Source of the DNA: an uncultured delta proteobacterium
GTDB taxonomy: Bacteria; Myxococcota_A; UBA9160; SZUA-336
Assembly: GCA_963704165.1 (NCBI GenBank)
Contig: CAVPHD010000009.1
Location: 96,001 to 160,000, forward strand
Length of the DNA: 64,000 nt
Direction: 5' to 3'
Part shown: positions 39,840 to 43,313 of the stretch, one piece after another
How the letters are laid out: every line of letters starts with the position of its first letter
Numbering within the stretch: the stretch's first letter is position 1
Translations under genes and position numbers: made by a program
Notes under the pieces: generated by a model
Told to the model about the DNA's origin: nothing
Seen by the model: the letters and a program-made list of their open reading frames with translations, nothing else
Database searches by the model: none

Positions 39840-41093
39840 TTGGACGCCCTCGGCCCCGCGGGCTGGGGCTCGTGTCCCGGAAGCGACGGACCGGGCACGG
39901 GCCTCCTCGCTCTCGAACCCGAGGTGGTCTTCGCCGGCGGATTCGCGGCGCTGCGCGAGGCCCGGCGCTGGCTCGACGACGCGCGATGCGAGGCCCCCCT
40001 GGGAGCGGTTCTCGTCGGCTGCATCGACTACGAGCTCGGCCTCGAGATCTGCGGCGGACGCGTGAGCTCGAAACCCGGAAGCGCATCGGCACCGGTTCGC
40101 CTCGCCGGATTCCGCGCGGTCTACCGGTATGACTGGCGAACCGGCGACGCGGAGGTCCGCGGCAGCTCGCGCCGAGCCGTCGATCGGCTCGCAGATGCGA
40201 TCGCGGTTGCGAAGCCGGGAGCGCGTTCCGCATGCGTGCCGCTCCGCCCTCCGGTTTCCCGCACCACGGACCTCGAATTCGCCGCGGCCATCGAGCGCGT
40301 GAAGGCCTACATCCGCGCGGGCGACGTCTACCAGGTCAACCTGTCGCGTCGATTGGAGACCGCCGCACCGAAGCCCGCCGACCAGCGTCGACTCCTCGGC
40401 CTTCTCGCGGATCGCGCTGGCGCGCCGTTCACCGCCTACCTCGAAACACCCGAGCAGACGGTGGTCTCGGCTTCACCCGAGTGCTTTCTGCGAGTGTCGG
40501 GCGATCGCGTACAGACCTGCCCGATCAAGGGCACGCGCCCCCGCGGTCGCACGCCTGCGCTCGACTCGATCCTCCTCAAGGAGCTCGAGAGCTCTGCGAA
40601 GGATCGCGCGGAGCACGTGATGATCGTGGACCTCGAGCGAAACGACCTCGGCCGCGTCTGCGAAACCGGAAGCGTGCGGGTCACCCGGCTCTGCGAACCG
40701 CGATCGTTCAGCGACGTCCACCACCTCGTTTCGTGCGTGAGCGGGAGGCTGCGCAACCCACGCGACTGGCCGAGCCTGCTCGAGGCCACCTTTCCCGGCG
40801 GATCGATTACCGGCGCACCGAAGCTTCGCGCGATGCAGATCATCGGCGAGCTCGAGCCGGTTCCGCGCGGTGTCTACACCGGCGCGCTCGGCGTCTTCGA
40901 TTCCGTCGGCGACGTGGACCTCTCGATTGCGATCCGAACGGCGGTGTCGAGCGGGAGCGAGATGCACCTCCATCTCGGCGGCGGAATCGTCGCGGATTCG
41001 GACGTCGCGGAAGAGCTGCGCGAGACTCGCGACAAGGGACGAGCCTTCTCTCGCAGCTGGGAGTTCGAGGAGCGGACGAACTCGGCCGAGTAA
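39840..41093 (+). CDS. Chorismate-binding enzyme (aminodeoxychorismate synthase component I / PabB-like); true start may be further upstream, near 39734
   Basis: GDVYQVNLS, SPECFL, PIKGTRPRG, AEHVMIVDLERNDLGRVC, FPGGSITGAPKLRAM, IAIRT. Confidence 0.88.
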   Translation: MDALGPAGWGSCPGSDGPGTGLLALEPEVVFAGGFAALREARRWLDDARCEAPLGAVLVGCIDYELGLEICGGRVSSKPGSASAPVRLAGFRAVYRYDWRTGDAEVRGSSRRAVDRLADAIAVAKPGARSACVPLRPPVSRTTDLEFAAAIERVKAYIRAGDVYQVNLSRRLETAAPKPADQRRLLGLLADRAGAPFTAYLETPEQTVVSASPECFLRVSGDRVQTCPIKGTRPRGRTPALDSILLKELESSAKDRAEHVMIVDLERNDLGRVCETGSVRVTRLCEPRSFSDVHHLVSCVSGRLRNPRDWPSLLEATFPGGSITGAPKLRAMQIIGELEPVPRGVYTGALGVFDSVGDVDLSIAIRTAVSSGSEMHLHLGGGIVADSDVAEELRETRDKGRAFSRSWEFEERTNSAE

Positions 41094-41205
41094 CCCTCTC
41101 GAGAGTCGCCTGGAGCTCGATCGAACGCGGTCTTCCCACGACGATCTGCCTCAAGCACGCGAGAACGCGCTCCGAAGAGCGAAACGAGGCTTCGGAGGGG
41201 TCGTG

Positions 41206-41763
41206 ATGAAACAGGCGGAGACGATACGGGACGAGACGGGAATCGCCCCGATCGCGCCGGAATCGACCGATTCGACGCCTGGCTGGCGCACGATTCCGCT
41301 CGCGGGTGCTCGTGTCGGTACCGCTCGCCCACCCGAGCCACAGCGCCGAACCGATTCCCGTATTCATGCCGACTTCCAGCTCGAACTGACTTCGATCGAC
41401 GCGTCGCGCGACGCGATGAGCGGCGATCTGTTCTTCGCGACGAGCGCGGACGAGCACACGCGAAATCTCTCACGACGAGGGATGTGCGTCCGTTGCGAAC
41501 GTCCCCCGACGATCGGCACACGTGTGCTCCTGCAATTGCGCCTTCCCGGAGAAGCCTCGATCGACGTGATCGGACAGACGCGCTGGACGCGCGTCGAGTT
41601 CGAGCCGGGCGAGCATGGTTCACGCGCGTACGCGCTCGTCGGAATCGAGCTGCTCGGCGGCGCGCCGCGCGCACTCGATCGCTACGACCGAGCGCTGGGC
41701 CGTTTGCTCGCGCTCGACGACAGCCCAAACACCCCGGTTGCCTCCGTCGGGAACCGCCGATAG
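41206..41763 (+). CDS. PilZ-domain protein
   Basis: RRTDSR (RxxxR) and NLSRRG (D/NxSxxG) motifs, GQTRW; GGAGGGG RBS upstream. Confidence 0.75.
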   Translation: MKQAETIRDETGIAPIAPESTDSTPGWRTIPLAGARVGTARPPEPQRRTDSRIHADFQLELTSIDASRDAMSGDLFFATSADEHTRNLSRRGMCVRCERPPTIGTRVLLQLRLPGEASIDVIGQTRWTRVEFEPGEHGSRAYALVGIELLGGAPRALDRYDRALGRLLALDDSPNTPVASVGNRR

Positions 41764-41819
41764 CATGCCACGAGATGCGCAGCTCGAAGTCACCGGGAAT
41801 GTTTCGTTGGATCCGCGGA

Positions 41820-42080
41820 ATGCGGACCTTCGAGGTCGATCCTGAACGGCTCCGCGCGCGGCGAGTGAGCGCGATCATTCGCTCGATCCAGCGCGATCTC
41901 GACGAAGGTGGTCGCGCGTACGTCCGCCAGATCATGAACGGGCCCGAGTTGTTTCGCCTCGAACTCGAGCGCCCCGACTGGCGGTATCAGAGGACGACGA
42001 TTCTCGACCGCGATACGCTGCGATCGCTGCTCGAAGCCACGCCCGTCGAGACCGTTCGCTCCTCGATGCGCTTCCGCTAG
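41820..42080 (+). CDS. Hypothetical protein (~86 aa)
   Basis: Protein-like composition, fills the gap between the PilZ gene and tRNA-Leu; start uncertain. Confidence 0.6.
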   Translation: MRTFEVDPERLRARRVSAIIRSIQRDLDEGGRAYVRQIMNGPELFRLELERPDWRYQRTTILDRDTLRSLLEATPVETVRSSMRFR

Positions 42081-42110
42081 CGAGGAATCGCTCGACGACG
42101 GGACATCCGG

Positions 42111-42458
42111 TGCCCGGAGCGGGGCTCGAACCCGCATGAGGCTCGCGCCTCAAAGGATTTTACGCGTGTCCGGAGATTTCTCTCCGGGGCGGACTATCTC
42201 TTCACCCCACGTCGCGCGACGCTCGCCGCGAACCTGGGGTGCTGGGCGCTCTTCGGCGGGGATTATCGTTGGGGCTCACCCCGCTAGTCTCTGCACCTTC
42301 CGCGGAACCTCTGCCCTCCGCGGCTTGGCTCAGGATTACCCTGCGTGCGCGGTCGCTCGTTTAGGCTTCCCTGAGTTCACCCAGTTTCTTACCCGCGTGT
42401 TGCCACGCGGGAGACCCATCCTCGAGTCCCTCGTGTCTACCTGTTCCACCATCCGGGC
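42111..42458 (-). tRNA. tRNA-Leu(TAA) interrupted by a group I intron (exons 42425-42458 and 42111-42162)
   Basis: Joined exons give acceptor GCCCGGA/TCCGGGC, anticodon arm AGGGA-CT-TAA-AA-TCCTT, long variable arm TGAGGC/GCCTCA, GTTCGAG T-loop, discriminator A. Confidence 0.93.
42163..42424 (-). ncRNA. Group I self-splicing intron, 262 nt, no ORF
   Basis: 5' exon ends in U, intron ends in G; P1 GGGACU/GGUCUC with U-G at the splice site; P2 with GCAA loop; P3 CUGGG/CCCAG; P4 CUCAGG/CCUGAG; R GUGCAGAGACUA and S AAGAGAUAGUCC (P7 GACUA/UAGUC); P9 with GAAA loop. Confidence 0.93.
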
Positions 42459-42511
42459 ATCGACAGCGTAGCGCGAACTGAAGCGACGGGTGTGCCGGGC
42501 TGGAGTGGAGA

Positions 42512-42582
42512 AGGCGCCGCCCGGATTCGAACCGGGGATAAAGGCTTTGCAGGCCTCTGCCTTACCACTTGGCCACGGCGCC
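42512..42582 (-). tRNA. tRNA-Cys(GCA), CCA not directly encoded
   Basis: GGCGCCG acceptor, GAGGC-CT-GCA-AA-GCCTT arm, GTTCGAA T-loop, discriminator U. Confidence 0.95.
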
Positions 42583-42624
42583 GACGGAGAAGCACCTACC
42601 ATATACGGATTCGAGGGAGTGCCT

Positions 42625-43080
42625 TCAAGACAGCGCGTCGAGTCCGGGAGCACGCGCGCGGGAGAAACCGATGCGCACGAGCACCCCGTCGGCATCGAGA
42701 TCGACCGCTTCGAAGAGTTCCGTCTGAGCGCGGCGCGTGAACCGGGCCTCGAATCCGCTCGCCAGCGTGCAGCGAAGCGTTCCGTCGAGATCGACGCGGA
42801 GCGTCTCCGCGAGGAGCGGTTCGCGCGATCGGTCCGAGAGCGCGAGATCACCGGTCGCCTCGTCGTAAGAGTCGACGAAGAAGGCCGTGTCCTCGACGTC
42901 GAGCCAGCCGCGAAATCGGCCGATCTGCACGACGAAGGTCTGCTCGGTCGATGCCCAGCGCACGCCCGCGAGGAACGCCTCCCGAAGCCGCGCATGCGTT
43001 ACGCGTACTCCTTGGTGCCAGAAGCTCCCGTCGCGGCGAAGGACGAGCCCGAACGGCGCGAGCGGATGTGGGCCGCTCAG
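42625..43080 (-). CDS. Hypothetical protein, DUF1285-like
   Basis: DGSFWHQG...VTH, LDVEDTAFFV, ARFTRRA resemble DUF1285 proteins (recognised by eye); start uncertain. Confidence 0.6.
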   Translation of the reverse strand: MSGPHPLAPFGLVLRRDGSFWHQGVRVTHARLREAFLAGVRWASTEQTFVVQIGRFRGWLDVEDTAFFVDSYDEATGDLALSDRSREPLLAETLRVDLDGTLRCTLASGFEARFTRRAQTELFEAVDLDADGVLVRIGFSRARAPGLDALS

Positions 43081-43313
43081 AGCGACTCCCGCGTCACGCT
43101 CCCGTCGGCCGAGGCGCCAAGGACGCCGCGACAGTCGTAGCGATGCCAGTACACGATCCGACTCGCGCCGTGCTCGAGCCGGTAGATCCACTTCTCGTTC
43201 CAGCGCACGCCGTTCTCTTCGTACGTGCGCGGGTCGTTCACACTGCCGACGACCTCGTCCGGAATCCCGAACCGCTCGCGGACGGAGCCATGTGTCAGCT
43301 CGCTAGCGGTCAC
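43077..43313 (-). CDS. Hypothetical protein (78 aa)
   Basis: Overlaps the nuoD stop and the next gene; protein-like sequence RFGIPD...NEKWIY. Confidence 0.65.
   Translation of the reverse strand: MTASELTHGSVRERFGIPDEVVGSVNDPRTYEENGVRWNEKWIYRLEHGASRIVYWHRYDCRGVLGASADGSVTRESL

Follow-up and report, generated by a model that had tools for sequence, protein, structure and literature searches.

We describe a group I intron inserted in a bacterial tRNA-Leu(UAA) gene between positions 33 and 34 of the anticodon loop. The split gene and its intron occupy the minus strand (42111..42458) of the window, that is, the whole 64,000-nucleotide stretch of DNA from an uncultured delta proteobacterium that was analysed. 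We propose, with a probability of roughly 0.8, that this is a self-splicing intron that would have been gained once near the base of its host family, inherited vertically thereafter without an endonuclease, and conserved for the decoding of UUA. The features of the locus are as follows:

42512..42582, minus strand: tRNA-Cys(GCA), 53 nt upstream of the split tRNA-Leu(UAA)
42425..42458, minus strand: 5' exon of tRNA-Leu(UAA), 34 nt, with U33 as its 3' end
42163..42424, minus strand: group I intron, 262 nt, with C as its first base and omega-G as its last, delimited by Rfam RF00028, ARAGORN and empty alleles
42111..42162, minus strand: 3' exon of tRNA-Leu(UAA), starting with UAA and holding the whole anticodon, the long variable arm, the T arm and the acceptor strand
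42412..42429, minus strand: P1, the exon end and intron base 1 paired with the internal guide at 42417-42412
42392..42411, minus strand: P2 hairpin, with changes on both sides in 6 of 8 pairs
42296..42384, minus strand: 5' strand of P3 and the P4-P5-P6-P6a domain
42314..42316, minus strand: GGG at the P6a tip, predicted to supply the 5' strand of a P11-like pseudoknot
42285..42291, minus strand: 5' strand of P7 (R motif) with the guanosine-binding G-C pair; its partner is 42196-42191 (S motif)
42256..42284, minus strand: P7.1 hairpin with a conserved 17-nt loop, in which CCC at 42273-42271 is the predicted P11-like partner
42204..42248, minus strand: 3' strand of P3, and P8, which varies in length
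42163..42190, minus strand: P9.0 (42190-42189 with 42165-42164), P9 hairpin and omega-G at 42163

The Rfam group I model RF00028, run on a 701-nt stretch with a cut-off of 50, matches positions 42434-42170 with 62.4 bits (E 2.1e-15), and this match is the sole one in the genome. ARAGORN in intron mode recovers the gene as tRNA-Leu(taa) i(35,262). Both searches had been proposed in a sequence-only reading of this DNA, which had also cautioned that standard annotation could miss the gene; indeed, ARAGORN without intron mode fails to detect it. Among the eight junctions of the loop region that remove 262 nt, 33/34 alone has both a U at position -1 and a G at omega. Moreover, two relatives of the same family (G024 and G026) carry an uninterrupted tRNA-Leu(UAA), and these empty alleles fix the insertion site independently. 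The placement of a group I intron at 33/34 in the sequence-only reading is thus upheld by the model score, the unique junction and the two empty alleles. The intron possesses the catalytic core P3-P4-P6-P7-P8, the U(-1)-G pair in P1 and an omega-G with P9.0 that together mark a group I intron; its 262 nt are too short for an endonuclease gene. The discriminator base of the tRNA is the A at 42111; the next bases are CC and a G, and the CCA end is therefore incompletely encoded. The tRNA-Cys gene adjoins the split tRNA-Leu gene in many relatives, and the two are likely to be co-transcribed; a search of 42000-42750 for a sigma-70 promoter or a terminator gave no match.

The segment containing the precursor folds with a predicted energy of -125.7 kcal/mol (z = -4.14), which none of 200 shuffles equalled. 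When the named structure was laid on 23 homologs, aligned with MAFFT and no custom covariance model, 97.5% of the cells were paired, as against 93.4% in shuffled and 30-49% in slid versions, and 24 of the 67 pairs, distributed over P2, P3, P4/P5, P6a, P7.1, P8 and P9, displayed changes on both sides. In P1, U33 pairs with the G at 42416, and this U-G is kept in 23/23 aligned homologs. The wobble pair had been placed correctly at the junction in the sequence-only reading; its register was one pair off, the best one joining exon GGACU plus intron C to GGGUCU and thereby including intron base 1. Both pairs of P9.0 are conserved, one in 31 and the other in 30 of 32 introns, and show swaps from G-C to A-U. 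Sequence and comparison establish the intron boundaries, the catalytic core, the P1 U-G pair and P9.0 beside omega-G. P7 is intact in 22/23 homologs. The remaining one (L003:1543-1822, in genome G007) has three changes in the 5' strand of P7, which disrupt the guanosine-binding pair; a search of this genome (97% complete) revealed no intact Leu(UAA) gene, and the damage would reflect either an assembly error or a crippled intron.

The extra hairpin that had been pointed out between P7 and the 3' strand of P3 is real and corresponds to P7.1 (42284-42256), with a very conserved loop and 98.5% of its cells paired in the 23 homologs. To examine its possible tertiary partner we used the 114 distinct introns extracted from all loci. 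GGG is present in the 8-nt window at the P6a tip in 108/108 introns with CCC in the P7.1 loop (background 113/814 windows); the CCC was forced by the search pattern in 75 of these 108, the GGG was not, and the other 33 are mostly close kin. Two unrelated introns (L077 and L310) have the compensatory combination GAG/CUC, and four lack both triplets. A first register with four pairs (93.5% paired, with no double change) was replaced by this three-pair register. We infer that the P7.1 loop and the P6a tip form a P11-like pseudoknot of three pairs, which steadies the core in the manner of subgroup IA1 introns. Neither P9.1, which acts as a brace in the Candida IA1 intron, nor P7.2 was seen in this intron, where the interval from P7 to omega-G holds just P9.0 and one P9 hairpin. 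The label "IA-like" that we use below is drawn from P7.1 and the P11-like features.

A P10-like pairing of the intron with its 3' exon, suggested earlier, is present in this sequence; it is displaced from the canonical position and several homologs lack it, the pairing being weak or absent in L014, L080 and L135. Across 31 related introns it scores 4.26 with the intron's own exon against 4.06 with swapped exons (p 0.0065, overstated by kinship). The canonical P10 amounts to two pairs here and zero to four in homologs. In the periphery, no repeat origin was found in the genome for the P8 insert. A short palindromic repeat unit, the same in the genus members L006, L007, L019, L020 and L025, is inserted in differing peripheral loops (P5, P6 or P8), and stands three times in tandem in L025.

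Splicing would proceed by the standard two-step, guanosine-dependent reaction, in which a free guanosine held in P7 attacks at U33|C1, and the 5' exon then attacks after omega-G. We searched eight metatranscriptome runs, as contigs at 80% likeness and with no DNA control, for traces of this reaction. The organism itself is in none of them (best share 0.15), and the RNA joints that we report come from relatives about 85-95% alike, from one study. A G is joined to intron base 1 (42424) in two of the eight runs, at contig depths of 8-32, and no such joint is seen in the other six. In run X1, a contig of depth 9.2 has a six-letter stretch, with G at its end and as long as the final six letters of the intron, joined to intron base 1. 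Judged by its letters, this contig is the junction of a full-length intron circle; such a junction arises by 3' hydrolysis followed by attack of omega-G on the 5' splice site (PMC6274462). In runs X1 (depth 8.3) and X3 (depth 32.3), intron base 1 is joined to the 3' end of the tRNA with seven letters of trailer, the last of them a G. These seven letters match the unspliced flank of a relative in run X2, and their final G may alternatively represent the added cofactor. Either type of joint requires a cut at U33|C1; the 5' splice site thus seems to be in use in these relatives. No ligated-exon junction was seen in the eight runs; run X3 contains an uninterrupted Leu(UAA) piece with 9 differences in 53 nt that is not assignable to an intron-bearing organism.

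A DNA search of 60 relatives gave a match in 24 of the 31 genomes of the family; that in G026 covers the exon only. The intron is hence present in 23/31 family genomes, including 11/11 of the genus, always at the same junction, and 32 measured introns range from 234 to 331 nt. Six family genomes (71-93% complete) yielded neither a split nor an intact tRNA-Leu(UAA). None of the 29 genomes outside the family that the DNA search covered matched the intron; in a pattern search, 66 of 89 genomes belonging to other families of this class had an intact gene, with the same neighbour genes in those that were checked. Intron distances are weakly correlated with those of the neighbour gene (rho 0.27; p 0.012 and 0.072), and the neighbour protein tree is too poor to tell loss from another origin for the two empty alleles. 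No endonuclease was found by Pfam among five flanking ORFs, three of which have no Pfam match at all (40870-41763 and 41766-42080 on the plus strand, 42625-43191 on the minus strand; threshold 1e-5). The first two of these hold their position next to tRNA-Leu(UAA) in several of the class's families.

Certain copies of the intron are unusual in their setting. Genome G027 carries, 31 kb downstream of the gene, a second, slightly decayed 5' exon with the first half of the intron, ending in P6a (L030 / L516; G027:C28:281583-281713). The DNA between the two copies encodes large laminin-G/DUF2341 proteins, with no integrase among the six ORFs scanned, and the arrangement looks like an island inserted with partial duplication. 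Genome G030 (58% complete) has two different intron-split Leu(UAA) genes (L018 and L028), reflecting a duplication or a mixed bin. Finally, L068, titled Gemmatimonadota, has an intron and tRNA nested among the family copies; it is either a mislabelled or misbinned record or a case of recent transfer.

Scanned with a sequence pattern, 185,579 species genomes returned 46 matches, of which 26 are genuine Leu(UAA) 33/34 introns: 21 belong to the family type, four come from a second phylum and one is titled Armatimonadota. The titles of the 21 family-type loci are mostly Myxococcota or Deltaproteobacteria, with one Gemmatimonadota. The scan undercounts, as L471 was retrieved another way. The second phylum has a group I intron in 39 of 81 genomes, and the 26 loci read there (L457-L482) comprise many Asn 35/36 introns, Lys(CUU) 33/34 introns (L459, L461, L472, L473) and Leu 33/34 introns. 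In viral contigs, three of four pattern matches are Leu(UAA) 33/34 introns of another build. Site 33/34, given in the sequence-only reading as that of cyanobacterial tRNA-fMet introns, is not special to fMet: introns also occupy it in tRNA-Phe(GAA), tRNA-Lys(CUU) and a Met tRNA, as well as in the tRNA-Leu(UAA) of phages and of two further lineages of bacteria.

In about half of the metagenome collection, the P7.1 motif is present in at least 119 loci, which a rough regex tally assigns to tRNA-Phe 33/34 (56), Asn/Asp 35/36 (15), Leu 33/34 (2), psbA (4), phage-type (21) and other (21) contexts; in viral contigs it was found at 14 loci, none in a tRNA. The tRNA-Phe 33/34, tRNA-Asn/Asp 35/36 and phage introns have the same P7.1-bearing architecture. 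By BLAST, the intron has a weak match to a psbA intron in phages only (E 6e-3) and none in plasmids. The phage introns L094-L107 bear the same P7.1 motif; some of them sit in apparent capsid genes and contain an ORF within the P5 region. Among proteobacterial introns at less familiar sites, L324 is in Arg(UCU) at 34/35, with a P7.1-type helix and no P11 triplets, L333 in Thr(UGU) at 36/37 and L323 in Arg(UCU) at 36/37.

We compared these introns by means of two trees, resting on 79 and 136 columns and with bootstraps that have not settled. In the core tree (79 columns, P7.1 left out), nine introns without P7.1, namely four Leu 34/35, an Arg, a Thr, two Met 33/34 and one phage Leu 33/34, are split from the 101 others by a branch with 95/96 support. 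In the tree of the P7.1 set, a single group of 35 rows (92/96) takes in the 32 Leu 33/34 introns, along with two Asn introns and one Arg intron. Some tRNA class labels were set by eye (e.g. Thr 33 to Asn/Asp 35/36), L297 was dropped, and 12 labelled loci with no extractable core stand outside the trees. The 34/35 comparators are proteobacterial and phage introns, with no cyanobacterial or plastid copies among them. Three pattern scans of viral contigs for cyanobacterial-type comparators returned giant-virus-type introns and chance matches (56 loci), one phage 34/35 intron among 120 loci, and nothing for fMet.

We regard as likely an origin from a pool of P7.1-bearing introns also found in other tRNAs and in phage genes, a single gain at or near the base of the family, and subsequent vertical inheritance with no endonuclease gene. 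Tentatively, and with confidence well short of even odds, we further posit that an undescribed IA-like lineage, defined by P7.1 and P11, colonised Leu(UAA) 33/34 in three bacterial lineages, separately from the 34/35 introns and the phage 33/34 introns of tRNA-Leu, became nearly fixed in one family, and makes full-length circles in nature. If true, this would furnish a natural test of endonuclease-free movement of introns between tRNA anticodon arms.

A rival reading is a direct jump from tRNA-Phe(GAA) 33/34 by reverse splicing, as the two anticodon arms can differ at base 34 only. The abundance of Phe 33/34 introns among the metagenome P7.1 loci favours it, and in 11 of 54 distinct Phe introns the five exon bases preceding the site are identical to those here; four to six complementary bases suffice for reverse splicing (PMC3984707). 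However, the Phe introns with a matching anticodon arm are scattered over the tree of the P7.1 set, none being sister to the Leu group, the rows nested within that group are Asn 35/36 introns and an Arg intron, and no direction can be read from an unrooted tree. We consider a direct Phe jump unlikely.

Transfer of the whole tRNA gene with its intron between the family and the second phylum is, in our estimate, also improbable. It would account for the family exons resembling those of the second group slightly more (0.74) than those of the sister families (0.70), for the longer variable arm common to the family and the second group, for the exon end that fully fits this guide sequence in just 3 of the 66 intact sister-family genes, and for the union of both intron sets in a single group (92/96). 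Nevertheless, the difference between the exons is small and comes in part from gaps, the two empty family alleles have the same exon type, and the locus keeps its neighbours across the class.

The single-gain reading also has to be weighed against descent from a classical Leu(UAA) 34/35 intron of subgroup IC3 that shifted by one base and gained P7.1 later. The host tRNA is the same, the core is on average 77% identical to proteobacterial 34/35 introns as compared with 82% to Phe 33/34 introns, and forcing Leu 33/34 and Leu 34/35 introns together is rejected just marginally (p-AU 0.048). Yet the 34/35 introns L327-L329 and L429 lack P7.1 and have a different P3 and guide sequence, and the 34/35 introns fall with Arg, Thr and Met introns across the 95/96 branch. 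A compact P7-to-P3 junction without P7.1 is a feature of IC3 introns; L327-L329 and L429 have it and the present intron does not. We regard a shifted classical intron as very unlikely. Independence from the classical 34/35 intron, which the sequence-only reading had advanced, is supported by the different periphery, the separation on the core tree and the absence of the intron from sister families.

The retention of the intron is best viewed in the light of the codon that its host tRNA reads. The genome (84% complete) has genes for Leu CAA, UAG, CAG and GAG tRNAs and no other Leu(UAA) gene, with the proviso that at this completeness an intact copy could be missing. To our knowledge, UUA is read by the UAA anticodon only. 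TTA accounts for 61 of 86,840 Leu codons (0.07%), in 58 of 1,719 long ORFs. The spliced product would be the tRNA needed to read this rare codon, and we propose that the intron is kept intact because the host needs its splicing for a UUA-reading tRNA. As many as 24 family genomes seem to be devoid of such a tRNA unless the intron is recognised. Splicing could conceivably act as a regulated gate on UUA decoding, paralleling the regulated UUA-decoding bldA tRNA of Streptomyces, given the rarity of TTA, the single gene and the near fixation of the intron in the family. We deem this highly improbable: the 20 scanned of 63 TTA-bearing ORFs share no clear theme, being a mixture of transporters, hydrolases, three kinases and CTP synthase (near its end), both the sister families and two members of the family do without the intron, and the rarity of TTA is expected at 68% G+C.

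Lastly, placing the junction at 34/35, so that intron base 1 becomes the wobble base, likewise yields a foldable Leu tRNA, Leu(CAA), reminiscent of the 72 Leu.3Cg introns reported in the accessible text of Williams 2020 (10.1101/2020.01.27.920355), but this reading is already contradicted by the omega-G rule, as the intron would end in U and not G, and by the empty alleles, which read UAA, besides the separate Leu(CAA) gene in the genome, the G at that base in the homolog L074 and the location of the RNA joints at 42424.

Introns in tRNA anticodon loops are a known kind, and the one presented here is not a new kind of system. Cyanobacterial and plastid tRNA-Leu(UAA) introns are inserted between positions 34 and 35, and cyanobacterial tRNA-fMet introns at 33/34. 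The former, termed Leu.3Ug and present in cyanobacteria, plastids and some proteobacteria, share with this intron the tRNA and loop, a group I core, U(-1), omega-G, small size and the lack of an ORF. They differ in site, in lacking P7.1 and the P11-like pairing (in the four 34/35 introns examined), and in falling on the opposite side of the core tree. The cyanobacterial fMet.2Ug introns have the same position after U33, but their host is the initiator tRNA-Met, as opposed to a tRNA-Leu(UAA) with a long variable arm. The fMet intron of Synechocystis encodes I-Ssp6803I (PMC1995217), whereas ours has no endonuclease gene. Two Met 33/34 introns from Patescibacteria genomes have no P7.1 and group with the classical-type set. 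Homing group I introns in general have an endonuclease gene in or beside the intron, unlike this one and its five flanking ORFs.

Subgroup IA1 introns with a P7 extension and P11 (Jaeger et al. 1991) are a further close system. Like them, this intron carries an additional helix behind P7, with a loop predicted to bind the extended P6 stem by base pairing. For the Candida albicans mtLSU intron (IA1), P11 is described as anchoring the P7 extension on the extended P6 stem (PMC12088405). Relative to this Candida intron, the one described here resides in a bacterial tRNA, has a P2 hairpin and forms a pseudoknot of three pairs only. Also close in build are the P7.1 introns of Patescibacteria and others (Phe 33/34, Asn/Asp 35/36), with a nearly identical P7.1 loop, P3 and P11-like triplets; they differ in host tRNA and site, and the family copies are G+C-rich and form a group of their own. 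A paper on the tRNA introns of Patescibacteria is said to have assigned these to subgroup IA.

The available text of Williams 2020 extends the classes of tRNA group I introns from four to 21, marks the four classical ones as IC3, and names Leu.3Ug, Arg.5Ug, fMet.2Ug, Ile2.5Ug and Leu.3Cg, with no subgroup or architecture given there for the new classes (10.1101/2020.01.27.920355). In that scheme, as far as its accessible text conveys it, the present intron would be Leu.2Ug, which one of the 17 further classes may already cover. A literature search, with most subscription papers and Paquin 1997 outside its coverage, returned no text describing a Leu(UAA) 33/34 intron. The intron is also relevant to a long-standing argument about how old tRNA-Leu(UAA) introns are. 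Introns that differ in structure have entered this one tRNA at adjacent positions, so neither host tRNA nor site marks descent. Being compact and G+C-rich, with a P7.1/P11 brace predicted and hints that it forms full-length circles, the intron offers a convenient model ribozyme.
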